Positions 3,114-62,587 of a stretch of DNA of 64,000 nucleotides are shown here, piece after piece (position 1 is the stretch's first letter; each line of letters begins with the position of its first letter). A program made the position numbers and the translations under genes. Below the pieces are notes generated by a model. It made no database searches. It saw only the letters and a program-made list of their open reading frames with translations, and was not told the origin of the DNA. The DNA comes from a virus, in the IMG/VR virus record IMGVR_UViG_3300038393_001317. One strand, given 5' to 3'.

Positions 3114-5960
3114 TCAGGTGCCGGCCGGGCGGGCCGGGCCGCGGGCCGTCGCGATCGTGGTCACGGGCGCGGCCGCCGGCAGGCCGTTGGGTCCGTTCAG
3201 TTGGAAGGTGCCGGCAATCTCGAAGCGGCGGAAGTCCTCGCGGCCGCGCGCGGTTTCGGTGTCTGCCGGCCGCGGGAGCGGGGTCGCAGTCTCCACGGCG
3301 CCGCGCGCGGGCTTCCAGCCTTCGATTTGCTGTTGCGCATCCATGATGCGCGCGCGCTCCTCCGGAGAGTACTCGGACATGCGCTTGTCCTTGCCGCCGA
3401 CCGCCGACAACAGAGCGCCGGCGTAGGCGTCGGACTTGTTCTCGTTGGGCGGTGCCCAGCGCTTGGCGGCCTGCGATAGCGGCAGGTCCCGGTAGTTCTT
3501 GCCGGCAAACAGCAGGTTCTCCTGCGCCTTGCGGCCGGCCTCGTATGTCGGGAACACGGCAAAGCGCCCGTCGCTCGTCGTTGCGCCCTGCGACTTCGCG
3601 TAGTCCCCGTATTCGATGTTGCCGGGGTTGTTGTTTCGCCAGCTTCGCGAGCCCGCGCCCACCTTGCCCGCCGGCGGAGACTCGACGCCGGTCGGGTCCA
3701 GCTTCTCGGTCGACGGCAGGTCCGGGTTCAGCTTCCCGCGGCCACCACCAACGCCGCCGGCGTTGAAGTCACCCTCGTTGATCGAGGTGTCGGCCGCGGG
3801 CGTGTTGATCGCCTGGATTTCATGGAGCAGCTTGCGGCGCTCCTCCTTGATGGAAACGTCGTGCGTCGTGCGCGCCTCGTCCATCTTCTGCTTGATGCCG
3901 CGCTCTTTGTCGCGGAGCTCGGCGATGCGGGCGGCGTTCTCCTGGCGCTTCTCCGGCGACATGGTCTTGTCCGCCGCGGAGTTGCGCTCGAGGGCGTCGC
4001 GCTCGCTGGCGACGCCGGCGAGTTGGGTGTTGAGCTCGCTGCGCTGTTTCTCGTACGCCTGGCCGATGCGCGCCTGGCGCTCGTCGGACTCGGCTTTCGC
4101 GAAGCGCTCGCGAATCGCCATCGGGCCGCCGCCCTTCTCGCCGGCGAGCAGCATCAGGGCCATGCGCATGTCGTTCAGCAGCGGCACAGCCTTACCGGCC
4201 ATGTCCTGCACCGCGCGCTCGACGCCGTTGATCGTGGCGCGCGTGCGAGAGCCCTCGGTCTCCTCCTGGTGCTGTTTCGCGGCCGCGCGCGTCTGGCGGT
4301 CCTTCTCGTCGTCGGACAGAGAGCCGTCGGCCTCGATTTGCGACAGGCGCGAGATGCCGGTCGCATCCACGTCGTTCAGGTTGATGCCCAGCTTTTTCAG
4401 CCGCTTTCCGATGCCGCCGAGTTGCGCCGGCTCGATGGACGACAGCGCCATCGCCTGGCTGTTGTTCACGCCGAACAGGTTCGACATGGCGTTGACCATC
4501 AGCATGGGCTTGTCGCGGTAGACCTCCTTCATCTGCCGCATGATCAGCTCGAGGTTCGTCGCGTCCGAATCCGCGGCCTCCGGTCGGCTGAGGCCGTTCT
4601 TTTTGGCGAAGCTGTCGTACAACGAGCCCTCGCCGAACGTGCCGCGGCCGGTGCCAAACAGGCCCTGCTCGCGAAGCATCGCCGCCTGGATGGGGTCCAG
4701 GCCCAGGCGCGAACCGAGCGCCTGGTAGAGGAAATTCTGGCCCGCCTCGCCGGCGCCGCCTCCGCTGGCGATCGTGCTGTTCGCGCGACCCAGGAGAGCC
4801 GCCGCGCTGGCCGGGTCCATGCCGGGGATGCGCGAACCGATCATGCCGGTGTAGAAGCTCGTGTAGCCCTCGGCGTTGGCCCGGTTCATGCCCACGCGGG
4901 TTTGCTGCGCCGTGAAGCCGGCGATCGCCTCCAGGACCTCGTCGGCCTTCGCGAACTGCTTCGACTTCGCCAGGCTTTCGCCGATCACGAGCGCCAGGCG
5001 CCGGCTGTCCTCCTGCGACTGCGTGACCTGGAAAAGCCGCATCTGGGCGAAGAACTGCGTGCTCTGCGCCGGGTCCATGCCGAACGATCGTCCGAAGCCG
5101 CCGGCGGTGTTGACCTCCTCGGCCAGGGTCTTGTACTGCTCCGCCGACATGCCCGACAGCTTCGCGAACTGGGTCCCCAGCTTCTGACCCTCCTCGAACG
5201 TCATGTCCAGGCCGCGCGCCGCTTCGCGCAGCGACTCCTTGAGCCCTTCGAACTGCACGCCCACGTCGCCGAGCTGGCGCTTGAGCATGTCGTAGCCGAT
5301 GAACTCTTGCTGCGCGGCGCCGATCTTGTTCGCGATCGCGCCAATGAGTTTCACGGCCGCCATGCCGACGGCCGCGCCGATGCCGGCGCCCAGGCCCGCG
5401 GCCATGCCCGTCGACAGGCCGGCGTTCGCAATCTGGCCGCCGGGGCCCATCGCGTTGAGGCCGGCGCCGACGATGTTCGGCATGCGCGGGCCGCGGCCGC
5501 CGCCAGGAGGTGGGGGCGGTGCCGGCGGGGTCGGCGGTCCACCGCCCCCACCAGGCGGGGACGGCGGGCGCCCACCGGGCGGGGGCGCGGGAGCCGCGGG
5601 CGGCGCCTGGAAGCGACCGCCGCCGCTGACGTAGTCGAACGCCTTCTGCATTTGCCGGCCGCGCGAATGCTCGTCCGGGTACATCTGGCGCCAGTCAACA
5701 TCGAAGAACGGTTTGTCGCCCTGGCCCGTGGCCTTGAGGCGCTTGCGCAGGTCGCCCGACACGCGCTTGAGGCTTTCGAAGCCGGCATTCAGCCGCTTCA
5801 TGTCCTCGAGGGACGCCTTGTCGATCGGGTTGAACTTCTGGCGCGTCGCGCTGGCGATCGCGGCGCCGAGCTTGTTGAACTGCGCCGCGAAGTCGCTTAC
5901 GACACGGTCGGCATCGCCCTTGTCGAACGCTGCCTCTACTGGGATTTTGATGCCGGCCAT
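3114..5960 (-). CDS. tail tape measure protein
   Basis: 948 aa, longest tail-module ORF, immediately after the frameshifted chaperone. E/K/R/Q/A-rich coiled-coil-like centre. Gly/Ala hydrophobic segment GAGLNAMGPGGQIANAGLSTGMAAGLGAGIGAAVGMAAV. Pro/Gly tract. C-terminal WRNNNPGNIEYG module. Confidence 0.85.
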   Translation of the reverse strand: MAGIKIPVEAAFDKGDADRVVSDFAAQFNKLGAAIASATRQKFNPIDKASLEDMKRLNAGFESLKRVSGDLRKRLKATGQGDKPFFDVDWRQMYPDEHSRGRQMQKAFDYVSGGGRFQAPPAAPAPPPGGRPPSPPGGGGGPPTPPAPPPPPGGGRGPRMPNIVGAGLNAMGPGGQIANAGLSTGMAAGLGAGIGAAVGMAAVKLIGAIANKIGAAQQEFIGYDMLKRQLGDVGVQFEGLKESLREAARGLDMTFEEGQKLGTQFAKLSGMSAEQYKTLAEEVNTAGGFGRSFGMDPAQSTQFFAQMRLFQVTQSQEDSRRLALVIGESLAKSKQFAKADEVLEAIAGFTAQQTRVGMNRANAEGYTSFYTGMIGSRIPGMDPASAAALLGRANSTIASGGGAGEAGQNFLYQALGSRLGLDPIQAAMLREQGLFGTGRGTFGEGSLYDSFAKKNGLSRPEAADSDATNLELIMRQMKEVYRDKPMLMVNAMSNLFGVNNSQAMALSSIEPAQLGGIGKRLKKLGINLNDVDATGISRLSQIEADGSLSDDEKDRQTRAAAKQHQEETEGSRTRATINGVERAVQDMAGKAVPLLNDMRMALMLLAGEKGGGPMAIRERFAKAESDERQARIGQAYEKQRSELNTQLAGVASERDALERNSAADKTMSPEKRQENAARIAELRDKERGIKQKMDEARTTHDVSIKEERRKLLHEIQAINTPAADTSINEGDFNAGGVGGGRGKLNPDLPSTEKLDPTGVESPPAGKVGAGSRSWRNNNPGNIEYGDYAKSQGATTSDGRFAVFPTYEAGRKAQENLLFAGKNYRDLPLSQAAKRWAPPNENKSDAYAGALLSAVGGKDKRMSEYSPEERARIMDAQQQIEGWKPARGAVETATPLPRPADTETARGREDFRRFEIAGTFQLNGPNGLPAAAPVTTIATARGPARPAGT

Positions 5961-5984
5961 GGTCGCTCGATTATGTTGTCCCGT

Positions 5985-6552
5985 CTACGTGATGGTCACC
6001 CAGTCGTCCGGGTTCTCCTCCATCTGTCGCAACACGTCGTCAAGGTCGAAATCCTCGTCCTCGTCCTCGATCGTGGCCTTCGGGTTCTCCTTGAAGAACC
6101 AGGCCCAGTAGTCGGCCGCCATCTCCTCGATCGTGGCGGCGAGGAACCGCGGGTCGGTTGCCGTGAGTCCGTACTTCGCGCGGTACCAGAACTCCAGGCT
6201 AGACGCTCGGCGCTTGCCCGCCTCCTTGGACAGGCGCTTGCGGTTTTTTTCGAAAGGAGTCCTCCTTCGCTCGCAGCGCACCGTGCACCTTGAGCAGCTT
6301 GTTGTAGGTCTCCTCCTCCAGCGGGTCCATGGCGTCAATGTCCCAGTCGTCGGGGACGCGCACAGCCAGGGTCTTGATCACGGCGATGCACGTCGCGATC
6401 GTGTCCAGCCAGGGGGTCGGCTCGACGCCTTCGGTGAGGCGCGAGTACTCGACGTTGATCTTGAGATGGTCGGCCATCATGCGGCGGGCGAACATGAAGT
6501 TGCCGACGCCTGGCACTTCGACCGGGAAGTCCGTTGGGCTTGCTGCGTGCAT
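5985..6552 (-). CDS. tail assembly chaperone frameshift fusion (G-T-like), requires +1/-2 shift at A7 run
   Basis: The ORF 5985..6338 looks coding only downstream of the A7 run (...EKNRKRLSKEAGKRRASSLEFWYRAKYGLTATDPRFLAATIEEMAADYWAWFFKENP...DWVTIT). Its listed N-terminus is Arg/Trp-rich shadow of the G frame. Confidence 0.6.
6199..6552 (-). CDS. tail assembly chaperone (G-like, zero-frame product)
   Basis: 117 aa between tube and tape-measure genes. GGAG 9 nt upstream of ATG 6552. Ends ...KEDSFRKKPQAPVQGGGQAPSV shortly after an A7 run. Confidence 0.75.
   Translation of the reverse strand: MHAASPTDFPVEVPGVGNFMFARRMMADHLKINVEYSRLTEGVEPTPWLDTIATCIAVIKTLAVRVPDDWDIDAMDPLEEETYNKLLKVHGALRAKEDSFRKKPQAPVQGGGQAPSV
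6245..6251 (-). promoter_or_regulatory. slippery A7 run (recoding site) CGA AAA AAA CCG
   Basis: + strand ttttttt at 6245-6251. The T-extension frame is +1 relative to the G frame ((6552-6338) mod 3 = 1). Confidence 0.55.
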
Positions 6553-6573
6553 TGAGAGCTCCGGGGTTTAAGG

Positions 6574-6601
6574 AAAAAGGGCCGCCGGGGATGGGCGGCC
6601 C
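6574..6601 (-). terminator. intrinsic terminator after tail tube gene
   Basis: - strand GGGCCGCC-CATCCCC-GGCGGCCC followed by TTTTT. Confidence 0.65.
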
Positions 6602-6620
6602 TCTGCTGGTGTCGCCAGGC

Positions 6621-7046
6621 TTAGATGCTCAGGTTCACCACGTCCAGGGCGTTGAACTGCGCCGATGCCATGACGATGGCGTGCTTCTGCACTTCCACGT
6701 CGCCGCTGGCGTAGGAGCAGCCCACGTACTTGCGCAGGAGCGTGTTGTCGTCCTTCGAGTAGACCTCGATGTCGAAAACCAGCCCCAGGAGCATGCCGTC
6801 GCCGTTCTCGGCGGCGATGCCCACGTCGCGCATGTTGCCGCGGTTCAACACCATGGTCTGGACCGTGATGCTGTGGCGGGCCATGGTCGGGACGTACTCG
6901 ACGGCGTGAATGTCGCCGACGCCGGAGGCGGGCTCCGGCGAGTAGTCGTCGTTCATGCGCACGTTCTGCACCAGGCCGACCTGCTTGCCGTCGAACGTCA
7001 CGATGATGCGGTTGCCCGAGCGGGTCTTGAGGTTCTGCGTCGCCAT
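6621..7046 (-). CDS. tail tube protein
   Basis: 141 aa directly downstream of the sheath gene and upstream of chaperone/TMP. GGAGG SD. Confidence 0.7.
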   Translation of the reverse strand: MATQNLKTRSGNRIIVTFDGKQVGLVQNVRMNDDYSPEPASGVGDIHAVEYVPTMARHSITVQTMVLNRGNMRDVGIAAENGDGMLLGLVFDIEVYSKDDNTLLRKYVGCSYASGDVEVQKHAIVMASAQFNALDVVNLSI

Positions 7047-7062
7047 GTTGAACTACCTCCGG

Positions 7063-8778
7063 TTAGGCGGACGCGCTGCCCGAGAAGGCAGTCGCGAAGA
7101 TGGAGACCAGGACGTAGTTCACGCCGATGACCGGGTGGCACTCGAACTGCACGCGCAGCACGTCGCCATCGAGTTGCGCCTGGATGTTCTTGTAGGCCGG
7201 GTTGGCCTTGTCGCCGGTGATCACGCCCGGGCCCTGGGGCTCGGCGCGCGCGAGCTCCTTGAGCGTCGAGTCGACGCGGCTGACGGCTTGCGCGAGCAGG
7301 ATGGGCGTGCCCTTCATGCCGCGCAGATCGTCCAGCACGTCGCGGACGTTGCGCGCGACGAAGTCGACGGCGACGCCGGTCGAGACTTCGACGCGGTTGT
7401 AGTTGTCGTTCGCCAGCCAGGTCGTGATCGACTGGACGACCTTGTAGCCCTTCTTGGTGCGCTCGACGCACAGGACGCCGCCCTTGATGAGCTGGTCGGT
7501 GTCGGTCGGGTTGCGCAGGTAGCGCTCCAGGCCGCGGACCTTGATCGTCTTGTTCGTCAGCGGCGTGCCGGGGTTCACGCTGGCGAAGGCGCCGGCGATG
7601 AGGGCCGCGGTCATGTAGGCCGGGTACAGCGTCAGCTTGCCGTCGCTGTTGTAGTCGTAGTAGCCGATGTGCACGAGCGACGTGCGGTCGCTGTTCAGCG
7701 CCAGGGCCGCGGTGATCGCGGCCGCGTCGCTGGTGTTGGCGGCCGTGCCGACGATGCCGCGGCGCTCCATCTGGCCCACCGTCGACATGAACGAGCAGTG
7801 CGTGTCGTTCATGGCATGGATGGACGGGTCGGAGCTGATCGGCACGACCCACTGCACGTCCTCCTGCTGGAGCGCCGTGTAGCAGTCCGACCAGTCGCTG
7901 TTCGTGACCGTGCCGTCGGTGCCGCCGGCCAGGTACGTGAACCCGATGTTGGCGGGCGGTGCGCCGGCGCCGGTCGCGCGCGTCGCATCGAGGAAGCCCT
8001 CGGCGTTGCCGTTAATCCAGTCGATGCACGCCTGGAGGTCGGCGCGGACCGTGTAGAGCGCCGACTTCACGTCGACGTTCGTCACGAAGTCCAGGCCCTG
8101 GAGGGCGACCTTTTCGCCGTTGCCGTCGAGCACCGCCGCGGTGAAGCCGGTCACCGAGTTGATGTAGTCGACCACTTCCTGCACGCTGTCGTACACCGTC
8201 AGGTCCACCGTCGCCACCGTGTTGCCGGCGGGCGCCTGCAGCGTGATGGTGTTGCCGGCGATCGTCATGGTGCCGGTCGCCTGGGCGCCGGTGTAGCGCA
8301 CGGACATGGCCTTGCGGTACACGTCGTCCTGGCTGTAGTAGGACTGGCCGCGTTGCACGGTCAGCTTCTTGCCCAGATTCGTCGCGGCTTCCACCTTGAT
8401 CTTGATGGAATTGGCGACCAGGCCGTAGTCGGTCGACTTGAGGTCGATCGCGTTCGCGCTCGTGCCGTCCACCAGCGTGAGCGACGACTGCAACGCCGGG
8501 TTGACGCGCATCGCGACGACTTCCGCCGGCGAGCCGGTTTGCGCGCTGGGGTCGAACGCCTTGAGGACGGCGTCCAGCAGCTCGCCCGAGATGAGCGCAG
8601 CCTTCGCCTGGTCCGGCGAACCGAATCGCAGTGCCGTCTTGGGCTTGCCGCCCGCGGAGCGACCGATCAAGGCAACGACGTTGCCGACGGTCAGGTTCTT
8701 GTTGGCGAGGCCGGAGTCATCCACCACCGACGCGACCGCCGGCGAGGTGATGAGTCGGCCCCCGAAGAAAACGCCCAT
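7063..8778 (-). CDS. contractile tail sheath protein
   Basis: 571 aa in sheath-tube-chaperone-TMP order. GAGGAG SD. Assignment rests mainly on size and position. Confidence 0.75.
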   Translation of the reverse strand: MGVFFGGRLITSPAVASVVDDSGLANKNLTVGNVVALIGRSAGGKPKTALRFGSPDQAKAALISGELLDAVLKAFDPSAQTGSPAEVVAMRVNPALQSSLTLVDGTSANAIDLKSTDYGLVANSIKIKVEAATNLGKKLTVQRGQSYYSQDDVYRKAMSVRYTGAQATGTMTIAGNTITLQAPAGNTVATVDLTVYDSVQEVVDYINSVTGFTAAVLDGNGEKVALQGLDFVTNVDVKSALYTVRADLQACIDWINGNAEGFLDATRATGAGAPPANIGFTYLAGGTDGTVTNSDWSDCYTALQQEDVQWVVPISSDPSIHAMNDTHCSFMSTVGQMERRGIVGTAANTSDAAAITAALALNSDRTSLVHIGYYDYNSDGKLTLYPAYMTAALIAGAFASVNPGTPLTNKTIKVRGLERYLRNPTDTDQLIKGGVLCVERTKKGYKVVQSITTWLANDNYNRVEVSTGVAVDFVARNVRDVLDDLRGMKGTPILLAQAVSRVDSTLKELARAEPQGPGVITGDKANPAYKNIQAQLDGDVLRVQFECHPVIGVNYVLVSIFATAFSGSASA

Positions 8779-38846: not shown

Positions 38847-40012
38847 GGTCCGTCCTTCTCGCCGAACGCGCCGGCCGGCAGCTTCCACTGGTCCGGCGGC
38901 ACGACGATCGGCCCCGTCCAGGTCTTGGAATTGCCCAGCGCCGCCACCTCGGGCTGGTCGATCGCCGCCTGGTACGCGCGGCCCTTGCCGGCGCGCGTCA
39001 TCAGGTCCTCCTTGCGGTGGATGGTCACGCCGAACTCGCGCTCGCGCTGCGCCACCTTGCCGGTCTCGTTCGGGTACAGCTTGTGGTTCGTCGCAATCTG
39101 ATTCGGGCCGGCGAAGATGCAATTCCGGCACGACAGGCGGCCGTAGCCGAGCTGATACGACGGGTGCGGCACGACGCCGTGCTTGCGCATCACGTCCCAC
39201 ACCTGGGCCTCACTCCAGCCGTGCACCGGCCGGTAGTGGTCGACGTGGCGCGTCGAGCTGTGCGCGCGATCGGGCTCGAACGCCTTGTAGTTCGCGCGGT
39301 TGGAGCTCTCCTCGGCGCGCTCGCCGGTCACGATCAGCGTGCGCTTGCCGGTGAACCGTTCCTGGTTCCGGACGGCCGCGGCCATCACGTCGACCTTGAG
39401 GGCGCCGCTGCACCAGCGCGTCGTGAGGTTGGCGGACTGCTGGGGGAATTTCCTGCGCGTGCCCAGCGGTCCATGTTCGCCGCCAGCGCGCCCGCGGGTT
39501 CCGTCCGGCTTCTCGAAGATGACCGGCGCGGTGCGCTGGTTCTCGCGCAGCATCTCGCGCTCGAAGCCGCCCTCGCGCCAGGAGAAGTAAATCGGGACGC
39601 CCAGGGCCTCCGCGATCTTCCGGCAGTAGTCTTTGGTGATCGGCCAGTCCATGAAGGACGCGCCCTCACCGTCAATGTCGTGATGGTGCAGCTCGATCTT
39701 CGCCGGCGGCACGCCGTTCTCGAGGAGCGCCAGGACGCAGGCGATGCTGTCCTTGCCGCCGCTGAATCCGACCAGGACCTTGTCGTAGCTGGCGAGGTCG
39801 GGCCCGGGCGCGATCGCGACCGCGGAGCCGTGAGCTGAGATGGAAAACACCTTGGGCGCATGCTCCTCGAACAGGTCGCGCTGCTTCGCCTGGTCGGCGG
39901 TCACGGCCGGCGGCGGCCGCGGCGTCGGGCGCTTGTCCTGGTGCGGCGCCACCGCGGTGCCGTCGCGCTTGACGTAGCCCTTCACGTGGGTCTTGAGCAG
40001 GAGCACGGTCAT
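38840..40012 (-). CDS. PP-loop ATPase / PAPS-reductase-like protein with shared leader
   Basis: Start trimmed to ATG 40012 (ATGA overlap with MuF stop), giving MTVLLLKTHVKGYVKRDGTAVAPHQDKRP. PP-loop VLVGFSGGKDSIA. Later TTRWCSGALK and SCRNCIF. Confidence 0.8.
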   Translation of the reverse strand: MTVLLLKTHVKGYVKRDGTAVAPHQDKRPTPRPPPAVTADQAKQRDLFEEHAPKVFSISAHGSAVAIAPGPDLASYDKVLVGFSGGKDSIACVLALLENGVPPAKIELHHHDIDGEGASFMDWPITKDYCRKIAEALGVPIYFSWREGGFEREMLRENQRTAPVIFEKPDGTRGRAGGEHGPLGTRRKFPQQSANLTTRWCSGALKVDVMAAAVRNQERFTGKRTLIVTGERAEESSNRANYKAFEPDRAHSSTRHVDHYRPVHGWSEAQVWDVMRKHGVVPHPSYQLGYGRLSCRNCIFAGPNQIATNHKLYPNETGKVAQREREFGVTIHRKEDLMTRAGKGRAYQAAIDQPEVAALGNSKTWTGPIVVPPDQWKLPAGAFGEKDGPC

Positions 40013-41157
40013 TTGGACCCCAGCGTGTTGCGCAGCCACTCGGCGAACTTCGGGTCGTCGCCGGCCTGCTCGGCGATCGTCGGAACCCAGCGGCCGCGGC
40101 AGTGCGGGTGCTGCGTTCCTGCAGCCGGCCACCACAGCTCGTGCGGCTCGCGCTCGATCAACAGGCCGCCCAGGCGCTTGTGCAGCGCCGCGCTCCGGCC
40201 GACGTTCGTCTTGCCGGGCCAAATGTCGGTCTGGCCGTTCTTGTGAATGTCGCCGGCGCCGACGACGTTCATGACCCGCCCGTCAATCGTGCGGCAAAAC
40301 TTACACGCGCCCTTGTACTGCTCGATGCGCTTCACGCGCGCGCCGTGCGGCAGGCTGGCGATGTAGCCCTGGTTCTGGGCCTCGACGGTTTCGGTCACGG
40401 CGATGCGACGCCAGTCGCGATTGAGCTGCGCGAACTGGTCGCCGAGCTTGGTCTCGAGCGCGCCGGCGAGCGGAGCGTCGCCCAGGTGCACGGCATTGAC
40501 GTGTTGTGCGATCGTCTGGCGCATGCGGTGCCGCACGTCGTTCGAGACCTCGCGCACGTTCTCGGCCGTGCTGGCGATCGCGTACTCGAGGCCGGCGCGC
40601 TGCGGCCGCGTGAACGGGAACAGGTCGATCGCCGCCTGGGCGGTGAGCGGCAGCGCCGCGATGACCTGGTCGGCCTGGGCCGCGGTGACCTGGTCCATGT
40701 TGGCCTGCACGCGGCCCATGATCGTCGCGCGCGTCGCCAGCCACTCGGCCTCCGCGCGCATGTCGTCCGCCGGCAGGTAGCGCTGCGTCAGCCAGTCGAC
40801 CATCATCATGTGGTCCTCGAGGGTCCACTCGCCAGGCGGCAGGTGCTCGAGGTACAGCTTCACCAGGTCCAGCTCGCCGCGCGACCAGCGCTCCATGACG
40901 CCGGCGGGCCGCGCGACGCGGTCCATACCGGGTCGATGCCGGGCGCCGTCGGACCACGCCTTGAGCTCGCGACGGAACGCCTCGAGTCGATCGAGACCGC
41001 GTTGCGTGAACAGCTCCACCAGGCGCGCGACGAACGGGTTGTCGACGGGGAGCCAAATGTCCTCGCCGTTGTGGTCGTGGATGGCCTTGTAGATCAGGTT
41101 GAGCGCCATGTCCGTCTGTTCGGCGGATAGCGGCTCGAGGTCGACAAACAGGCCCAT
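40009..41157 (-). CDS. MuF / SPP1 gp7-like minor head protein
   Basis: RIAVTETVEAQNQGY, CKFCRTIDGRV and GTQHPHCRGRW match the Mu F-family pattern as I know it. Confidence 0.75.
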   Translation of the reverse strand: MGLFVDLEPLSAEQTDMALNLIYKAIHDHNGEDIWLPVDNPFVARLVELFTQRGLDRLEAFRRELKAWSDGARHRPGMDRVARPAGVMERWSRGELDLVKLYLEHLPPGEWTLEDHMMMVDWLTQRYLPADDMRAEAEWLATRATIMGRVQANMDQVTAAQADQVIAALPLTAQAAIDLFPFTRPQRAGLEYAIASTAENVREVSNDVRHRMRQTIAQHVNAVHLGDAPLAGALETKLGDQFAQLNRDWRRIAVTETVEAQNQGYIASLPHGARVKRIEQYKGACKFCRTIDGRVMNVVGAGDIHKNGQTDIWPGKTNVGRSAALHKRLGGLLIEREPHELWWPAAGTQHPHCRGRWVPTIAEQAGDDPKFAEWLRNTLGSK

Positions 41158-41163
41158 CTAGCG

Positions 41164-41179
41164 ATCATCGAGTCACGAC
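41164..41179 (-). promoter_or_regulatory. GTCGTGAC-TC-GATGAT box, 6 nt before ATG 41157
   Basis: - strand TTTTCGTTTGTCGTGACTCGATGATCGCTAGATG, directly after a terminator. Confidence 0.55.
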
Positions 41180-41182
41180 AAA

Positions 41183-41212
41183 CGAAAAGCCGGAGCAGTC
41201 GCCCGCTCCGGC
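41183..41212 (-). terminator. intrinsic terminator
   Basis: - strand GCCGGAGC-GGGCGACT-GCTCCGGC followed by TTTTCGTTT. Confidence 0.65.
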
Positions 41213-41387
41213 CTTCCGGTTAGGCCCCCGTCTACCGCGAGCCCCGAAGCCCCGCAGGAAAGGACGCCGCCTACCCCTAGACGACGCGATCGTGACCTAA
41301 CTGCGGCCTTTATTTCCCCAATAGAAGCCGCTCAGGGTCGCAACAGCCAAGTGATGAACACCCGCCACGCTTCCGGCTTGCGCCGGC
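41183..41387 (-). ncRNA. candidate ~190-200-nt ncRNA (box at 41394-41409 to terminator at 41183-41212)
   Basis: Promoter-like box and terminator bracket a segment with no ORF of 60 codons or more on either strand. GC-rich hairpins. No family recognised. Confidence 0.35.
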
Positions 41388-41393
41388 GCGCGT

Positions 41394-41409
41394 AGTGTGG
41401 GCTCACGAC
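41394..41409 (-). promoter_or_regulatory. GTCGTGAG-CC-CACACT box variant with no ORF downstream
   Basis: - strand GCGGCGTTTTTTCGTCGTGAGCCCACACTACGCG. Confidence 0.4.
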
Positions 41410-41410
41410 G

Positions 41411-41434
41411 AAAAAACGCCGCGGCGTTGCGGCG
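41411..41434 (-). terminator. intrinsic terminator
   Basis: - strand CGCCGC-AACGCC-GCGGCG followed by TTTTTT. Confidence 0.55.
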
Positions 41435-41513
41435 CGCGGCGTGCTTCGGTGTCAGGGGAGGCGAAACCCGGGGAGCTCACATGGGGCAGTGGACTTCAAC
41501 TTAGGAGGAGACA

Positions 41514-41675
41514 ATGGCCGGTGCCGGCGCCAACCCGACACACTCCCCGGGGTTCTCGAACTCTCACGACAGCGGCCGCCTGGCGACTGTCGTGAGAGCT
41601 CGCACTCTCACGGCCGGGTACGTCTCCGGCGCGGGGCTTTCACCGCTCGTGATGCCTGTCGCCAGGTTCCCCTAG
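41514..41675 (+). CDS. possible 53-codon + strand ORF with ideal RBS (below track cutoff)
   Basis: AGGAGG-AGACA-ATG giving MAGAGANPTHSPGFSNSHDSGRLATVVRARTLTAGYVSGAGLSPLVMPVARFP, with fairly G/C-rich third positions. It spans the palindromes and has no recognisable + promoter. Confidence 0.2.
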   Translation: MAGAGANPTHSPGFSNSHDSGRLATVVRARTLTAGYVSGAGLSPLVMPVARFP

Positions 41676-41869
41676 CGCACTGGCTTTGTCGGAATCAACC
41701 GGAACGGGCGCCAACTAGCCCTCGGAGTCATCCGACTCGCCACCGCGACAGGTTCGGCAGGGAGCCGGAATCACCTCGCATTTTTGGCAGAGCCTCGGGA
41801 CCGTTCGCTGTCGGTATGCGTCCCCGATGAAGTTAGACCCGGCTGTCACCCCGGGCCCCTCGCGCTTTC

Positions 41870-42115
41870 CTACTCGGCCGCCGAAGCGACCGGAGCTTTG
41901 TCTTTTTCGGCGCCGTCGGCCGGCTCACCCATCAGCTCCTTGGCTTCCGCCTCGCTGATTTCGTGACCCCAGTCGACGCCCTTGTCCTTGCTGCCCATGT
42001 AGGGCACGAACTCGCCCTTCGACGGGCTCCAAACCTCGACCGGGTTCCCGCGAGCGGGACCGCGGAACAGCGCGCCCTCGTTCTCGATGTAGACCATGTT
42101 CGGGTTCTCGTTCAC
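41870..42115 (-). CDS. 81-aa protein translationally coupled to the RelA/SpoT-like gene (possible immunity/antitoxin)
   Basis: GTG start in a GTGA overlap with the upstream stop (42112-42115); acidic, normal composition. Confidence 0.6.
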   Translation of the reverse strand: MNENPNMVYIENEGALFRGPARGNPVEVWSPSKGEFVPYMGSKDKGVDWGHEISEAEAKELMGEPADGAEKDKAPVASAAE

Positions 42116-43614
42116 TTTGCTTTCCTAACCAACATGATCATTTTCGATGAAGTCTGGGATTTTTGCAAGGGCCGCTCGTCGCTTTTTTGCGACGCGCCCG
42201 GCTTGCCGTCCTTGCCGGCGGGTTTCGCCTCCGGCTGAGCGCCGGCCGTGGCCTGGGCCCAGGCTTTGCCGTACAGGTCCTTCTGCTCTTTCAGCGCCTC
42301 GTAGAACTTGGTGTGGTCCTCGTCGGACCAGGCGTCCGTGGGCGCCGGCTCGTTGTACTTCGCGCGCAGCGATCGACACACGCCGTAGGCATGGTGACCG
42401 TGGTCTTTCGCCAGGGTCATCGCCTTCACATGCACCTGGAGCTCGGCGAGCATGCCGTTGGGCAGCTTCACGATCGTCATTGCGTCGCGGTAGCCCTCGC
42501 TGGTCGGCTCCGCGAACCGGTCCTTGGGTTGCTGCGCCAGCTCGACGCCGGACTCTTTCAGCTTGGCGAGCGCCGTTTTCACGTCCGCCATCGTCGGCAC
42601 GCTGATCGTCGCGCGGACAATGTCGCGGAGCTGCGACCAGTCGCCGTCGTAGTCGGCCATGACCTTTTCCTTCGCGCGCGACTCGCTTTTCAGCGGCGCC
42701 ACGAACACGAAGCCCTGCTCGCTGGCCCAGTCCTCGGGCGTGAGGTCGTCGGGCCGCTTGCCCTCGACCAGGCCCATGGACTTCGCGATGCCGGACAGTT
42801 GCTCCTTGAACTGGTTCAGGCCCTCGGTGCCGTGCTTGACCAGGTCCTCCCAGGTCTTGTGCGGCTGGTTCACCTTCTTGGGCAGCTTCGCGGTCTCGGC
42901 CTGGTCGAACACGGCGTCGCCCTTCGCCGGCGGCTCACCGGCGTCCGCGGCCGGCCGCGCCTCGTGCGGCGAGCTCGTCGGCTTGCCGCCGCCTTCCCAG
43001 TGGTGCGTCACGGCGCCGTGGCGGACGCGATGCTCGCCGCCGGCGTCGTCCTTCACGGTGACGCCATGCTGGCCGGCGGCCGTCACCTGGCCGTGCCCGC
43101 GGTGCGCGCCGTTCACGAAGCCGACATGCCGGCCGGGTTGCGCCGGCGCGGCCGCCTGGTCGGTGCTGACCCAGCGCTGCGTCTGCACGCCGTTCTTGTC
43201 GGTGACCTGCTTCTTGACCAGGCCCGGTCGGTTCGCGAGCGGCCCGCCCTTGAACAGGAGCACGGGGCGGCGCGGGTCAAAGGCTTTCGCGATCACGAGC
43301 GGGTCCTCTTTTGCCTCGTTGGGCGTTGCGACGTAGCGGCGCCGGCCGGCCTGGTCCTGGAGGAGCATGCCGTCCTCGCCCTGGTCGATGATTTGGCCGC
43401 GGATGGCGACGCGCGACTTGTGGCCCAGGACCTTGTCCCAGGTGATCTTGTGGTGGGCGCCGTCAATCTCGCCGGTGACGCCATGCTTGCCGTGCGCGGC
43501 GACGCGGCACGTGCACGGCTGGCCCTCGTGGTGGACGTACAGCTCGTCGCCGACCTCCACACCAGGCCGGCGCTCCGGCTCCTTCTGGGTCTTGCCCGGG
43601 GCCTTCGGCGTCAT
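42112..43614 (-). CDS. 500-aa protein with C-terminal RelA/SpoT (RSH) nucleotidyltransferase-like domain
   Basis: PLKSESRAKEKV...LRDIVRATISV...SEGYRDAMTIVKLPNGMLAELQVHVKAMTLAKDHGHHAY (about nt 42280-42852). N-terminus has two HG(K/Q)HGVTG-type repeats. ATGA overlap with portal stop. Confidence 0.75.
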   Translation of the reverse strand: MTPKAPGKTQKEPERRPGVEVGDELYVHHEGQPCTCRVAAHGKHGVTGEIDGAHHKITWDKVLGHKSRVAIRGQIIDQGEDGMLLQDQAGRRRYVATPNEAKEDPLVIAKAFDPRRPVLLFKGGPLANRPGLVKKQVTDKNGVQTQRWVSTDQAAAPAQPGRHVGFVNGAHRGHGQVTAAGQHGVTVKDDAGGEHRVRHGAVTHHWEGGGKPTSSPHEARPAADAGEPPAKGDAVFDQAETAKLPKKVNQPHKTWEDLVKHGTEGLNQFKEQLSGIAKSMGLVEGKRPDDLTPEDWASEQGFVFVAPLKSESRAKEKVMADYDGDWSQLRDIVRATISVPTMADVKTALAKLKESGVELAQQPKDRFAEPTSEGYRDAMTIVKLPNGMLAELQVHVKAMTLAKDHGHHAYGVCRSLRAKYNEPAPTDAWSDEDHTKFYEALKEQKDLYGKAWAQATAGAQPEAKPAGKDGKPGASQKSDERPLQKSQTSSKMIMLVRKAK

Positions 43615-45368
43615 GGTTCGATGCGCAGCACCGGCAGGCCGAACGACTTCTGGAGGCTGGCCTTCTCGTCGTCGCTCGGGCCGGCGCCGCCCTCCTCGAG
43701 GTCCTGGTCGTCATCGCCGCCGGCGTCCTGGCCGCCAGGCTGACCGAAGTCCTCCTCGCCGCCGTCGCCGAAGTCCTGGCCGCCCATCGCAGACGGGTCG
43801 GACTGGCCGGGCATGCCGAAGTCCTGCTCCTGCGGCATGGCCTCTTGCTGCCAGGCGGCGACGAGCGCGGGATTGAGCGGGGCATCGCCCCAGGTTTCCT
43901 TGATCGGCTTGCGGCCGTCCTCGGCGCGCACCTCGTTGACCGTCATCGTCTGCTTCTTGCGGTCCCAGACGGTGGCCTCGTCCTCCTCGTCCAGGCCGGT
44001 CCACACGAACTCGGCGTCCTCGTTGAAGTCGGCGACGATGTAGTCGGTGAACAGGTTCTGGAAGTACGACAGCAGCGGGCGCAGGCCCTTGTCCTTCGAG
44101 CTGGCGATCTTCTCCTCGGTGTCGGAGCCCGACAGGCTCGAGGTGCCGTTGGTGAACGACTCGAAGTTGATTTCGTCCGGCGCCATGCCGTAGATCGCGC
44201 AGATGATCGACGCGAGAAACGTCATCCACTTGCCGAACATCAGCTCGGACGCCGGCTCGCCGAAACTCTCGAATTTCGCCGCGGACTCCTGGTCCTTCGA
44301 CACCATCACGGGCAGCGCATGGGCATTGTTGATGCCCTTGACCATGCCGTTCCAGTAGCGCTTGAACGCCTTAATGTCGTCGTCGCTGTAGGCGCCGAAC
44401 AGGTTCAGCACGCCGCGCGGCATCGCGTTCGAGTCGAAGAACTTGACGTTGTACGTGAACGCGTTGAGGAAGCCGGTCACCACGCGAATCAGCAGCTCGG
44501 TCTCGCCCATGCCGTAGCCGCCCGACAGCACGTCGGTGCGCGGGTTGCGCGGCACGTAGACCAGGTCGTCGTACGTGTACGCGCTGCGAATGTTCCCCTG
44601 CACGAGCTGGATAGCGAAAATCTCGTCGTCGCCACGGTAGCCCTGCTCGGTGCACAGGCGGATGGTCGCGCCGTCGACCGCGTAGATGCCGTCGATGCCC
44701 AGGCTGCGATCGCGCTTGAACTCGGTCTCGATCGGCGCGGCGTCCATGGTGAGCGAGTCGCGGACCAGCTTCGCCATGAACGTGCTCATGTCGTCGCGCT
44801 TCAAGCGCTGACGCATGCGCGGCTTGAACTCGAAGCCGCCGTGCGAGAAGAACTTCTCGAGGAGCTGCAGGGACTTGGTCTGGTCCTCGCCGAGCTCCGC
44901 CTTTTTGTCGCGCATGCTGACGCGGAAGCCCGGGCCCTTGCCGTCGGCCTGCGGCCGGCAAAAGCGCTGCACCTGGCGGATGCGCGTCATGATCACGGCG
45001 TTCAGGATGGGCGTCGACTCCACCATCTGGCGCATGGCGTCGAACGAGAACACGCCCTGGCGCTCGTAGTAGTCGCCCATCACGCCGATTTGCACGTCGT
45101 CCAGGTAGACCGACTGCATGCCGGGCTTGCGATCGCGCGCCGCGGCCGACGGGAGCTGGATGACGTTGTTCTTGCGCAACGCCTTGGTCATCGCCTGGTC
45201 CTCGTATCCGTCCTGGATGAACGTGAGGAGCGGCGCCAGGCGCTCGAGGTTGATCAATTCCGCGGAGACCTGGCCCATGGCCCCTTTTTGGAGCTGCGTC
45301 ATTGCGTCCTGACGCTCGTCGGCCGGTGCACGCGGGTCGTGGGCGACGCTGAGGGCGGAGTCCTTCAT
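43611..45368 (-). CDS. portal protein
   Basis: 585 aa at the head of the morphogenesis operon, with an acidic D/E/G-rich C-terminus. Size and position are typical. Box upstream. Confidence 0.75.
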   Translation of the reverse strand: MKDSALSVAHDPRAPADERQDAMTQLQKGAMGQVSAELINLERLAPLLTFIQDGYEDQAMTKALRKNNVIQLPSAAARDRKPGMQSVYLDDVQIGVMGDYYERQGVFSFDAMRQMVESTPILNAVIMTRIRQVQRFCRPQADGKGPGFRVSMRDKKAELGEDQTKSLQLLEKFFSHGGFEFKPRMRQRLKRDDMSTFMAKLVRDSLTMDAAPIETEFKRDRSLGIDGIYAVDGATIRLCTEQGYRGDDEIFAIQLVQGNIRSAYTYDDLVYVPRNPRTDVLSGGYGMGETELLIRVVTGFLNAFTYNVKFFDSNAMPRGVLNLFGAYSDDDIKAFKRYWNGMVKGINNAHALPVMVSKDQESAAKFESFGEPASELMFGKWMTFLASIICAIYGMAPDEINFESFTNGTSSLSGSDTEEKIASSKDKGLRPLLSYFQNLFTDYIVADFNEDAEFVWTGLDEEDEATVWDRKKQTMTVNEVRAEDGRKPIKETWGDAPLNPALVAAWQQEAMPQEQDFGMPGQSDPSAMGGQDFGDGGEEDFGQPGGQDAGGDDDQDLEEGGAGPSDDEKASLQKSFGLPVLRIEP

Positions 45369-50191: not shown

Positions 50192-50207
50192 ATCGTGCGG
50201 TCACGAC
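50192..50207 (-). promoter_or_regulatory. GTCGTGAC-CG-CACGAT box
   Basis: - strand GTCGTGACCGCACGATGAGG, 34 nt before ATG 50165. Confidence 0.45.
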
Positions 50208-60914: not shown

Positions 60915-61448
60915 TCAGAACAACCGGAGCTGACGCAGTGCCGGCGTGACGCAGGGCGCCAGGCCGAAGCGGACGACGGACTTGTTGTCGCGAAGCGCCG
61001 AGATGATCAGCTCGGCGTCGTCCAGGGTGAAGGGCGCCGTCGACGTTCGCAGCTCGCCGCCCGCCATGAAGCGGATGCGCCGGCGCGCCAGGCATGCGAG
61101 CTTGACCGGCGCCGTGCCCTTCGCGTTCTTGCCCTTCATGAACTCGTACTCGCGGTTCTTGCACGAGACGCAGTGCATGCCGCCGATCAGGCGCGGTGCC
61201 GGCCGGTGGCATCGCGAGCAGACCTTGGAGCCGGCCAGGCTCGAGGTCGACGCGTCAGCCTCGCCGGCGTGCAGGGCGCCCAGTGGGCAGCGCCGGCATG
61301 ACTCGCGGGCCTGGTCCCCGCATCCTGGGCCGTTGCTGGCGCGCCACATACCGGCGCACGAGCTCGTGCTCAACCTGGCCTTGAGGTGCTGGCAATCGAA
61401 GTAGAGGACGCCAGGCGTCAGCTCGATGGAATGGTACTCAACCTGCAT
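60915..61448 (-). CDS. Cys-rich protein (177 aa), first gene of the - strand early operon
   Basis: CRRCP...CSRCH...CVSCKN; starts next to the AT-rich control region. Confidence 0.65.
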   Translation of the reverse strand: MQVEYHSIELTPGVLYFDCQHLKARLSTSSCAGMWRASNGPGCGDQARESCRRCPLGALHAGEADASTSSLAGSKVCSRCHRPAPRLIGGMHCVSCKNREYEFMKGKNAKGTAPVKLACLARRRIRFMAGGELRTSTAPFTLDDAELIISALRDNKSVVRFGLAPCVTPALRQLRLF

Positions 61449-61734
61449 AAGAGTCCCCCCGGATATATGCGGCTGAGGCGGGATTCTATGGTTGCGCTGA
61501 AATCATGCTGATACTTTACATTCTGTAACCAACAGTCGCCCTAGTCCGACAAAGGACCATCAGCGGCGTCCTACAAATCCGTGGTTTCCCGGCCACGAGC
61601 TGTTCTGGTTGGGCGGTTTGGGCTTGGTTGAGGCCGGCGGTTTTGGAAAAAGTCCTTTGTAATCAACGCTCTCTACTACTACCAAAACCAAAAAACCTAG
61701 ATTTAGATAGATAGATACATAGCAGGAGAGGTCT

Positions 61735-61768
61735 ACATATATTCACAATAATTGTGTTTAATATATGT
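61735..61768. repeat. nested palindrome ACATATAT-TCACAATAATTGTGTTTA-ATATATGT
   Basis: Outer arms 61735-42 / 61761-68; inner CACAAT-A-ATTGTG at 61744-56. Confidence 0.7.
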
Positions 61769-61841
61769 ATAGGGGAGAGTAGGAGGGATATGATTCGCAG
61801 CCCAGCAGACGGTTTTTCGGTTTTGGACCGGCTAACTGCCT

Positions 61842-61857
61842 GTCGTGATTCGATAAT
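61842..61857 (+). promoter_or_regulatory. GTCGTGAT-TC-GATAAT box on + strand upstream of + gene
   Basis: + strand ctGTCGTGATTCGATAATcgg. Confidence 0.45.
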
Positions 61858-61915
61858 CGGAAAACCGGCATCCCACCGGAATCCAACCCAAAACCGAAAA
61901 CCAGCCCCGGAATAT

Positions 61916-62587
61916 ATGGACCAGGACACCCTATTAAGAGTGCGACGCGCCGTCATGGCCCTCACGGCCAAGGAAAACGGTCAGTCGGTGCTTATCAGAT
62001 GCGACACCTCTGCCGCGCAACAAATAAGCGCTGAGGTACACCGATTCGCCCGATCGCGTGACCTGGGCGTCGCCCTGGCCGACGAGGACACCGGCGTTCG
62101 CGTGACGCGCGACGACTCCAGGAAGGGCGCGCCGGCCAGCCGCTACGCGCCGATGGACAACCTCGAGGTGGGTGACTCGCACGTGTTCGAGGTGCCGCTC
62201 GAGGACCACTACAAGGTCCGCCAGGCCGCCAGCACGCGCATGAAAACGTCGGCCGGCAAGAAATTCCGGTGCGAGCGAGAAGGCAACGGAATCCGGGTCA
62301 CGCGCCTGCCCGACGACGCCACGATCAGCGCGGGCCGGCCGCGTCGCCACAGCATCAACCTGGGCGCCCTAGACACCCACCAGGCCGTCGCGTTCGCCGG
62401 CTACGACATGCACAGCGCCGTGCGCACCGCGGCGTCGCAGTGGGCCTACCGCCACAACTGGGTACTGCACACGCGAATCGTGGGCGACACGATCACCGTG
62501 TACCGCCTCGACAACCTCGAGGTGTTCCGCGGCATCGACCAGGTGAACAACGGCCTCAACCAAATCCTGGCCGCCAGGGCCGGCTGA
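61916..62587 (+). CDS. hypothetical protein (223 aa; alternative start ATG 61790)
   Basis: Lone + gene between two - strand operons. The 5' portion uses rare A/T-ending codons (CTA TTA AGA ATA). Followed by a + strand terminator. Confidence 0.65.
   Translation: MDQDTLLRVRRAVMALTAKENGQSVLIRCDTSAAQQISAEVHRFARSRDLGVALADEDTGVRVTRDDSRKGAPASRYAPMDNLEVGDSHVFEVPLEDHYKVRQAASTRMKTSAGKKFRCEREGNGIRVTRLPDDATISAGRPRRHSINLGALDTHQAVAFAGYDMHSAVRTAASQWAYRHNWVLHTRIVGDTITVYRLDNLEVFRGIDQVNNGLNQILAARAG

Follow-up and report, generated by a model that had tools for sequence, protein, structure and literature searches.

What does a virus keep in a part of its head module where no gene can be made out? The question is raised by a 64,000-nucleotide (nt) stretch of viral DNA (IMG/VR virus record IMGVR_UViG_3300038393_001317), the whole of which is called the window in what follows, where 712 bases with no appreciable open reading frame (ORF) come between the last gene of the portal operon and a gene for a protein of 382 amino acids (aa). 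A first-pass annotation had put forward one or more phage non-coding RNAs for this gap. Conservation and compensatory changes in relatives, together with the lack of a conserved ORF, support that proposal, and three modules, A1, A2 and B, can be distinguished, all of them conserved in relatives and all covarying. That they are conserved structured non-coding RNAs is held with high confidence. The fuller reading, that the gap is an RNA-gene island whose three RNAs act in trans, is favoured though far from secure, and a function for them in translation, RNA metabolism or anti-defence is offered tentatively. Every feature of the gap that had been pointed out at first proved to be present, at the coordinates given for it. 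All the evidence is computational, and transcription is read from motifs. The borders and the three modules are these:

41870..42115, minus strand: 81-aa gene, the last of the portal / 500-aa / 81-aa operon, with its TAG at 41872-41870
41158-41869, minus strand: the ORF-free gap of 712 bases, in the head module
41869-41591, minus strand: A1, about 280 nt, beginning right after the stop of the 81-aa gene
41555-41410, minus strand: A2, ending at terminator 1
about 41388-41180, minus strand: unit B RNA, about 205 nt
41157, minus strand: ATG of the 382-aa gene, next after the gap

Coding content and known RNA families

Could the gap be a decayed gene, or hold the gene for a small protein? The only minus-strand ORFs around it are one of 44 aa (41715-41849) and one of 31 aa that overlaps the 81-aa gene, so the longest falls short of the 60 codons that had been given as the limit. 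On the plus strand there are ORFs of 129, 66, 53 and 35 aa, and their existence is the first point in favour of a small protein; the second is that the 53-codon one (41514-41675) does have, as had been noticed, an AGGAGG some 6 nt before its ATG at 41514. However, neither it nor the other small ORFs of the gap have a Pfam or PHROG match, and its frame is not kept. L003, a viral contig that is the nearest relative (its 382-aa protein is 90% identical to the window's), lacks the counterpart of window 41742-41565 and with it most of the 53-codon ORF; L003 has an AGGAGG and ATG of its own, from which the shared bases are read in a different frame. When all stop-to-stop segments were compared with the relatives by tblastn, the matches were short, interrupted and equal in the six frames, and there are indels of 1, 2 and 4 nt inside conserved blocks. 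Neither a frame kept in relatives nor frame-specific similarity, by which a protein-coding sequence would be recognized, was found for the gap. As for the AGGAGG, it is simply the complementary reading of a CUCC(U) tract in the linker of A2, which the RNA strand conserves. With the L003 deletion, the frame mismatch and the six-frame-equal similarity all against it, the decayed gene or 53-aa peptide that had been held out as the alternative is hardly tenable.

Is it then one of the RNA genes already known? The first-pass annotation recognized no Rfam family, and a covariance-model check is likewise empty: the 4227 models of Rfam 15 give 0 matches in the entire window at gathering score, and over 40900-42200, with E up to 10, matches are at chance level only, the best having 18.5 bits against a cut-off of 45. 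The permuted transfer-messenger RNA (tmRNA) model RF04321 is absent from the window's Rfam list even at E up to 10, ARAGORN finds no transfer RNA (tRNA) and no tmRNA in the window, and the covariance models for GOLLD and ROOL match neither the window nor the relative L104. Across the relatives' islands Rfam reports tRNA and permuted tmRNA only, never covering A1, A2 or B, and blastn with the entire gap finds no match among 50,697 phage records.

The gap is GC-rich, as had been said of it (0.647 over 41001-42000, with flanks of about 0.66-0.70 and about 68% for the whole window). Its folding energy compared with shuffles has z = -3.9 for the minus strand and -1.8 for the plus strand, and the modules by themselves give -3.6 (B), -1.8 (A1) and -0.9 (A2). 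As these module values are uneven, it is conservation and covariation, not energy, that carry the case for non-coding RNAs. The G-U pairs in the conserved helices fit the minus strand alone.

Relatives are not in short supply. A protein search of metagenomes gave 1246 homologues of the 382-aa protein; those of loci L006-L010 and L102-L105 are 66-81% identical to it, and a metagenome scan added 80 further loci at 42-62%.

Unit B and the putative promoter box

The clearest of the three modules is B, which had been described as a unit with a promoter and a terminator and without an ORF; the box and the terminator are conserved, and no frame is kept. Its parts are as follows:

41409-41402, minus strand: box GTCGTGAG of the B promoter, followed by CC and the -10-like CACACT (41399-41394), with a start probably at about 41388-41386
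41386-41373, minus strand: P1, a variable hairpin with a GCAA loop in the window
41337-41335 with 41319-41317, minus strand: pseudoknot, CCC with GGG
41331-41326 with 41308-41303, minus strand: P2, with the nearly invariant loop AUUSGGGAAAUAAAGG
41301-41294 with 41226-41219, minus strand: P3, a long-range helix whose sequence is almost wholly different between phages
enclosed by P3, minus strand: P4-P6, the inner helices of a multi-helix junction
41264-41257, minus strand: pyrimidine tract UCCUUUCC (or UCUCCU), between P5 and P6
41218-41183 with the following U-tract, minus strand: terminator 2, a hairpin capped by GAAA

Window 41346-41180 is about 97% identical to L003 and alignable with L006-L009. 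R1, a covariance model made from six sequences, gives 171 bits for window 41346-41179 and also matches about 22 distinct related contigs, whose 382-aa proteins are 50-90% identical to the window's; the matches are always on the coding strand and usually end 15-25 nt before the 382-aa gene. When 16 sequences are aligned (alignment A7), 95.5% of cells are paired as against 35-48% in slid controls; the alignment was fitted to the model, which favours it, but the controls were slid on that alignment too. At 38 of the 53 pairs there are changes on both sides, and none of 500 shuffles reaches any observed measure. The pseudoknot, in which single-stranded ACC(C/G) pairs with (G/C)GG in the P2 loop, has one variable pair, C-G in 5 sequences and G-C in 11, unbroken throughout. 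The P1 loop is a GNRA tetraloop in about half of 17 sequences, and terminator 2 is conserved with compensatory changes. How far does B extend beyond these phages? The exact P2-loop pattern occurs in none of the genomes of 185,579 bacterial species, and the 5 viral-contig stretches that have it are of the same clade or duplicates of known loci.

Upstream of the B core, GTCGTGAY-N2/3-(C)ACACT is present in all 17 sequences examined, often right after a terminator. The GTCGTGAG-CC-CACACT of the window stands at 41409-41394, where it had first been placed, and is a variant, with a -10-like CACACT, of a family-wide consensus that is taken up below. In its sequence, B has the marks of an independent small RNA (sRNA) gene, namely a conserved promoter motif, a conserved terminator and no conserved frame, and that it is an independent transcription unit is probable. 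The modelled fold and its GNRA-capped hairpins suggest an RNA that may bind a protein or ligand rather than a simple base-pairing sRNA.

Might B instead be a leader acting in cis on the 382-aa gene, a riboswitch or protein-dependent attenuator whose fold decides between termination at terminator 2 and read-through from the 41409 promoter into the cargo operon? It does look like an aptamer: there is a pseudoknot and a multi-helix junction, it has unpaired bases that do not vary, and its terminator abuts P3. In most loci B ends 15-25 nt before the 382-aa gene; promoter, pseudoknotted fold, intrinsic terminator and gene follow in the order seen in transcription-terminating riboswitches. Unlike in those riboswitches, however, a separate promoter precedes the start codon, since a conserved box lies between terminator 2 and the ATG, 22 nt before the latter, with no Shine-Dalgarno (SD) sequence. 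With this box and no SD, the 382-aa gene has a start of its own, and read-through RNA would be a poor template for its translation. Nor is the adjacency constant: a GIY-YIG gene on the other strand splits B from the 382-aa gene in L009 and L010, and in L102 it is a 262-aa gene that comes after B. P3 is free to vary while terminator 2 is nearly constant, no co-varying anti-terminator or alternative pairing was found by eye in a search that was not exhaustive, and there is no Rfam riboswitch match. A cis leader is accordingly given little weight, and B is taken further here as an RNA in its own right. The GIY-YIG gene, of homing-endonuclease type, is at 3120-3935 of L010 on the minus strand, and at the same place in L009, oriented opposite to its neighbours and inserted exactly between the B terminator and the 382-aa promoter.

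Several other candidates were tried for B and rejected. A pairing of its box (GUCGUGAC) with invariant GUUGCGAC, predicted by RNAalifold, has a second strand that is not conserved in distant homologues, and since the box is a promoter it is probably untranscribed, a further ground against that pairing. A pairing of B with the 5′ end of the 382-aa gene (AAAGGCC/GGCCUUU) fails as B is unchanged where the gene start changes. A group II intron match on the B terminator in L104 (20 bits, E = 0.31) is due to chance.

How general is the box? Its family-wide consensus is GTCGTGAC-NN-TAcnAT, and in the window it is found as follows:

57688, 50207, 49570, 49114, 45390, 41179, 36956 (ATCGTGAC), 30122, 29534, 24403, 9913 and 742, minus strand: box starts
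61842, plus strand: the sole box-like site on that strand (TGTCGTGATTCGATAATCGG)
45390-45383, minus strand: portal promoter box, 22 nt before the portal ATG
41179-41172 with GATGAT at 41169-41164, minus strand: promoter of the 382-aa gene (GTCGTGAC)

Exact copies of GTCGTGAC in the window number 11, all on the minus strand and all intergenic, with 0 on the plus strand and about 4.5 expected for both strands combined. For five boxes (742, 24403, 29534, 41179 and 45390) the ATG is exactly 22 nt from the first base of the box, and between box and ATG there is a -10-like hexamer (TACCCT, CACCAT, TACGAT, GATGAT) and no SD. Several boxes come straight after intrinsic terminators. Related loci have the motif almost exclusively on the coding strand, and the same 22-nt spacing is found before the 382-aa homologue in many of them, as it is before the portal gene of Bordetella phage vB_BbrM_PHB04 (PHB04 below); related loci with the same layout have the box at 3979-3994 and the ATG at 4001. 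From the strand bias, the intergenic siting, the fixed distance to the ATG and the terminators just upstream, we infer that the box, a strand-specific, intergenic and family-wide promoter-like motif, is a phage-specific promoter that would give leaderless or nearly leaderless mRNAs.

Two further observations concern boxes elsewhere. Between 48700 and 50210 on the minus strand those at 50207, 49570 and 49114 are within 1.1 kb, one of them directly after a terminator; two of the three have no ATG at 22 nt and may mark further short transcription units. The GC minimum of the window (0.579, at 61001-62000) contains the plus-strand box-like site at 61842 and may be a divergent promoter or control region.

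Modules A1 and A2 and the A1 core

Upstream of B the first-pass annotation had seen a unit of about 450 nt, stem-rich and ending at a terminator. The stems and the end at terminator 1 stand; however, what was taken as a single unit is two modules, A1 and A2, which are separable because about 800 nt, including tRNA-Met and ORFs, intervene between them in L009. A terminator scan confirmed both of the minus-strand terminator-like hairpins that had been pointed out, 41435-41416 followed by T6 and 41218-41183 followed by TTTTCGTTTG. For A1 the helices, all on the minus strand, are:

P1a
41857-41836: Pa, with loop GGUGACAG
Pb/Pc, with loop ACAGCGAA
Pd, with loop AGUUGG
Pe
41646-41631: H1, GCGG-UGAAAGCC-CCGC (loop UGAAAGC)
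41630-41613: H2, GCCGG-AGACGUAC-CCGGC (loop also as AGACGUAA)
41612-41591: Pf
41613..41646: the A1 core, about 40 nt, being the two abutting hairpins H1 and H2

With nhmmer, full-length homologues of A1 were found in L006, L008, L009/L010, L104 and L105, and in L003 only its 5′ 125 nt. For a MAFFT alignment of six sequences (A9) and 10 hand-checked helices, 91.1% of the cells pair, compared with 32-45% when partners are slid, and 15 of 53 pairs have a compensatory change. Conserved loops include GGUGACAG, UCAGCAG, AGUUGG, UGAAAGC and AGACGUAA. The window's GUGAGAG/CUCUCAC pairing, which belongs to the stem-rich sequence first noticed, is the counterpart of helix Pf in relatives (CUUGAGG/CCUCAAG). 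A rejected candidate was the long-range pairing of 5′ GCGCGAGGGG with CCCCGCGC of the core, together with a UCAC/GUGA hairpin, as in distant phages only H1 and H2 compensate. What L003 lacks is about 180 nt (window 41742-41565 against L003 1750-1777), in which Pd, Pe, H1, H2 and Pf are included; the otherwise widespread core has either been deleted there naturally or is missing through an assembly artefact.

The window has at this place a peculiarity of its own, a 21-nt inverted repeat (repeats I2 and D1) at 41557..41602 on the minus strand, with arms 41602-41582 and 41577-41557. It uses the CUCUCACG strand of Pf and so makes an alternative, competing hairpin, it dominates the single-sequence fold, and a box-like GTCGTGAG lies inside it at 41570-41563. 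Its source is a local duplication (direct repeat of 41555-41581 with 41599-41625, 74%). It was not seen as such in the relatives and is within the stretch absent from L003; it may offer a second way of folding or an additional site for starting transcription.

A2 has the following parts:

41555-41543 with 41475-41463, minus strand: closing helix, 13 nt, 92% complementary (pair I11)
41541-41521, minus strand: hairpin with loop GUUGGCG, GUU(A/G)GCG across relatives
41511-41503, minus strand: linker tract CUCCUCCU, with the conserved CUCC(U)
41492-41475, minus strand: invariant CCACUGCCCCAUGUGAGC, CCACUGCYYCAUGUGAGC across relatives
41435-41416 with a U-run to 41410, minus strand: intrinsic terminator 1

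The closing helix is the long-range pairing that had been picked out at first, which is thus real; its sequence varies between phages and the pairing is kept. A2 is present in the window, L003, L006, L009/L010, L011, L012, L103 and L104, and in L105 as the hairpin-loop motif only. RNAalifold on a 6-sequence alignment predicts 23 pairs, 12 of them with a compensatory change. Descent from the acceptor piece of a decayed tmRNA was considered and rejected, there being no conserved T-arm. The CAUGUGAGC of A2 is reminiscent of tmRNA.

How would A1 and A2 be transcribed? As there is no minus-strand box between 45383 and 41570, they would be the 3′ tail of the portal-operon transcript, ending at terminator 1, and in relatives RNase P cutting at the downstream tRNA may set the 3′ end of the A RNA. 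B, for its part, would be an autonomous RNA of about 205 nt.

The core of A1 has a wider distribution. Pattern scans (regular-expression searches) found it in 21 distinct sequences, whose alignment (A11) has 96.3% of cells paired and a compensatory change at 8 of 9 pairs, with variants such as UCGG/CCGA, GCGU/ACGC, GUGG/CCAC, CUGG/CCAG and CGGG/CCCG. A 44-nt blastn query, unlike the one with the entire gap, brought up P1 and PHB04, and it adds to the carriers the P1/P7 group and two phages of Bordetella avium, IFTN2 and IFTN6. In P1 it is at AF234173 68989-69025 (L106 1501-1537), within the C1-controlled ban-operon leader; tRNA-Asn (then tRNA-Thr) follows it after 3 nt, and the annotated "dicF-like region" lies about 420 nt upstream of it. 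Its H1 has there a further compensatory form, GAGG/CCUC. The core stretch is also in P7, D6, RCS47 and SJ46, and the P1 stretch is in 559 of 5426 complete E. coli genomes, where tRNA-Asn only is annotated. None of the P1, PHB04 or RefSeq E. coli records examined has an annotation for the core. RNA elements that are annotated in P1 include the C4 antisense RNA and, in the ban-operon leader, the "dicF-like region". The core shares its leader with the latter, but is the unannotated element well downstream of it. Rfam, with E up to 1, puts nothing over the core in the P1 leader stretch and lists neither C4 nor DicF there; nor are these two listed for the gap of the window with E up to 10. The P1 leader, of about 650 nt, holds the dicF-like region, an intrinsic terminator and a weak permuted-tmRNA-like match (E = 0.009, 24 bits, below cut-off).

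In PHB04 the core is in an unannotated gap downstream of a permuted tmRNA. The features there (L001) are:

3059-2599, minus strand: tRNA-Met, tRNA-Asn and tRNA-Pro
2116-1745, minus strand: permuted tmRNA
about 1054-1015, minus strand: A1 core
5984-7177: RtcB coding sequence

The permuted tmRNA (tag ANDDYIRAAA), the three tRNAs and the core are in one unannotated stretch of about 1.1 kb, with the RtcB RNA-ligase gene a few kb off, an arrangement consistent with an accessory region concerned with RNA repair or translation. Two Herminiimonas genomes also carry the core, in one of them (L101) flanked by phage-like recT and exonuclease genes on one side and by an integrase gene on the other, a locus read as a prophage. 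In a Herbaspirillum metagenome-assembled genome (L100) the core adjoins tRNA-Met and tRNA-Gly, which are downstream of it; immediately upstream, at 2417-2517 on the minus strand, is a tRNA-like sequence with an insertion of about 45 nt between D-arm and T-arm (Rfam tRNA, 30 bits, just above cut-off).

The two hairpins of the core adjoin each other, their loops have invariant bases, and the strand that bears them is always the transcribed one. In this they bring to mind the put element of phage HK022, a two-stem-loop RNA of about 70 nt that works without protein factors, binding the beta-prime zinc-binding domain of RNA polymerase and suppressing downstream terminators (PMC9378689). Would the core be such a cis-acting processive antiterminator, one that lets polymerase run on through the tRNA and tmRNA genes beyond it and past both terminator 1 and terminator 2? 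In the window it is upstream of both terminators, and elsewhere it is in operon leaders, that of the P1 ban operon before tRNAs and the start of the IFTN2 recombination operon. The likeness is in architecture, two adjacent stem-loops on a nascent transcript in phage operons, and architecture alone was compared. However, put has long stems and a triplex, whereas the core is smaller, with 4-5-bp stems and no sequence similarity seen, and its position relative to promoters and terminators is inconsistent: in PHB04, L012 and L060 it is downstream of tRNA or tmRNA genes, in P1 the intrinsic terminator is upstream of it and not downstream, and in L003 the core is lost and both terminators are kept. 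Antitermination by the core therefore seems quite unlikely, though it and the cis leader are the chief rivals of a role in trans.

Another possibility is that the modules are spacers and trailers of a tRNA/tmRNA operon, kept only as processing or stability signals for RNase P, E or III and having no function as RNAs in themselves, with the window's copies as leftovers after tRNA and tmRNA were lost. The core is indeed often 3-60 nt upstream of a tRNA (P1, L008, L009, L092, L104), and parts of the island are lost in the window and in L003. Against this, A1 with its approximately 280 nt, at least 9 covarying helices and invariant loops is beyond the needs of a processing site, B has its own promoter and terminator and never adjoins a tRNA, and the core has no tRNA nearby in IFTN2 or in the Herminiimonas locus with recT, exonuclease and integrase genes. 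We regard this explanation, too, as improbable, and the discussion returns to RNAs that would function in trans. Two resemblances of the core itself were also followed and given up: that of H1 to a lambda boxB-like hairpin, for which there is no boxA, and that of H1 and H2 to the D-arm and anticodon arm of a tRNA, for which there is no T-arm and no acceptor stem.

The island, its neighbours and possible roles

Why an island of RNA genes? In all relatives the content of the slot that runs from the small gene to the 382-aa gene varies; it may hold a Metallophos protein or cargo proteins of 121, 180 or 262 aa, and its ORF-free stretches reach 1.29 kb in L104 and 0.94 kb in L105. tRNA-Met is in the same slot in L008, L009, L092 and L104, and permuted tmRNA (RF04321) in that of L092 and L093 (93-104 bits), and also in PHB04. 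It is because relatives hold tRNA-Met, permuted tmRNA and swappable cargo genes there that the slot is regarded as an RNA-gene island. The order in relatives is small gene, A1, tRNA-Met, permuted tmRNA, A2, an optional cargo gene, B and the 382-aa gene; the window keeps A1, A2 and B without tRNA or tmRNA, and L003 is additionally without the 3′ half of A1. It had been suggested that a structured RNA is tied to the cargo block; a functional link between them is not supported by the present analysis.

The genes in the surroundings of the gap are nearly all on the minus strand. The portal protein (585 aa, 43611-45368) is 61% identical to that of PHB04, a myovirus (94 kb, genus Phabquatrovirus); for Aeromonas, Pseudomonas, Enterobacter and Yersinia phages, which have 90-95 kb, the identity is 54-63%. 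After the portal gene on the minus strand come the genes for the 500-aa and 81-aa proteins, the gap, the 382-aa gene, a PAPS-reductase-like gene, one for an InPase-containing polyvalent protein and an ORF of 2157 aa, whose counterparts in relatives are methylase/helicase proteins of 2039-2154 aa. The 500-aa protein (42112-43614, minus strand) has a borderline RelA/SpoT-like domain (26.9 bits, cut-off 27); the protein after the portal varies, with Zeta-toxin/AAA_33 kinase domains in L008, L009 and L104, and PHB04 has separate ppGpp-synthetase and Ser/Thr-phosphatase genes in the slot held by RNAs in the window. The 382-aa protein itself (40009-41157, minus strand) has no Pfam or PHROG match, and its label "MuF" comes from its position after the portal and a C-terminal HPHCRGRW only; MuF-family proteins end in a similar H-x-x-C-R motif.

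What could the three RNAs do? All would be stable folded RNAs acting in trans, probably bound to protein or binding ribosome or mRNA, and their target may be translation or RNA metabolism during infection, as for the tRNA and tmRNA genes of the same island. A conserved CUCC(U) tract, similar to an anti-SD, is exposed in A2 and another in B, and several box-driven phage genes have no SD; a link between the two is suggestive at the level of sequence.

Several considerations weigh against this. The window itself is without the tRNA and tmRNA genes from which the link to translation is drawn, and the core, being absent from L003, can be done without in at least one close relative, provided that the assembly is right there. 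Instead of mRNAs, the CUCC tracts might have conserved G-runs inside the RNAs as their partners, and a fold as compact and pseudoknotted as that of B is commoner among RNAs that bind ligands or proteins than among sRNAs that act by base pairing. With 6 sequences each for A1 and A2 the alignments are small, the fitting of A7 to its model inflates the pair counts for B, the energy z-scores of A1 and A2 are weak when taken alone, and the putative transcript ends of the modules come from motifs only.

Compared with known systems, the three RNAs have most in common with phage tRNA/tmRNA clusters such as that of PHB04 (tRNA-Met/Asn/Pro and permuted tmRNA), with which they share the slot in close relatives, the strand and a mosaic pattern of gain and loss. 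However, none is a tRNA or tmRNA by ARAGORN or Rfam, and by eye they have no T-loop, acceptor stem or tag frame. GOLLD and ROOL are large ornate phage-associated RNAs of unknown function, often near tRNA genes (see also PMC12286853). A1 is like them in being a long, multi-helix, covarying phage RNA that in relatives neighbours tRNA genes and neither codes for protein nor has an evident part in regulation, but it differs in having no Rfam match, in its smaller size, in being from high-GC proteobacterial phages and in its modularity, as the core travels alone. We see A1, A2 and B as new RNA families within a known kind, that of phage-borne structured RNAs near tRNA genes. Full-text searches of the literature gave nothing on A1, A2, B or the core, and neither the papers on the Mecenats66/PHB04 group and on the put structure mention them nor does the text of a catalogue of 10,006 candidate viral RNAs (PMC10690425), which is not sequence-comparable, so a prior listing without a name is possible.

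A bolder proposal, doubtful as a whole though worth stating, goes further on several counts at once. Each of A1, A2 and B would be a new RNA class. The A1 core would be a functional element that has gone unnoticed though widespread in proteobacterial phages, P1 and P7 included, and would be either a new protein-free antiterminator or the conserved heart of a family of ornate RNAs that go with tRNA arrays; B would represent a new kind of pseudoknotted RNA that binds a ligand or protein and is made from a phage-specific promoter; and A2 and B, by their exposed anti-SD-like tracts, could help to shift translation to the phage's leaderless messages.

Structured RNAs with such covariation and without a family are uncommon, and here there are three side by side, in an accessory slot of the head module that is annotated as a mere gap. 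Should either cis explanation be true after all, the outcome would be a new antiterminator or a new riboswitch-like class. That P1, in its C1-controlled ban operon, and the cultured phage PHB04 carry the core makes its function testable by standard E. coli genetics, and P1-like plasmids with the core are in about 10% of complete E. coli genomes. For the phage family, the family-wide GTCGTGAC promoter and the SD-less starts at 22 nt point to a strategy of leaderless expression, which the RNAs of the island, tRNA-Met, tmRNA and the anti-SD-like A2 and B, could support.

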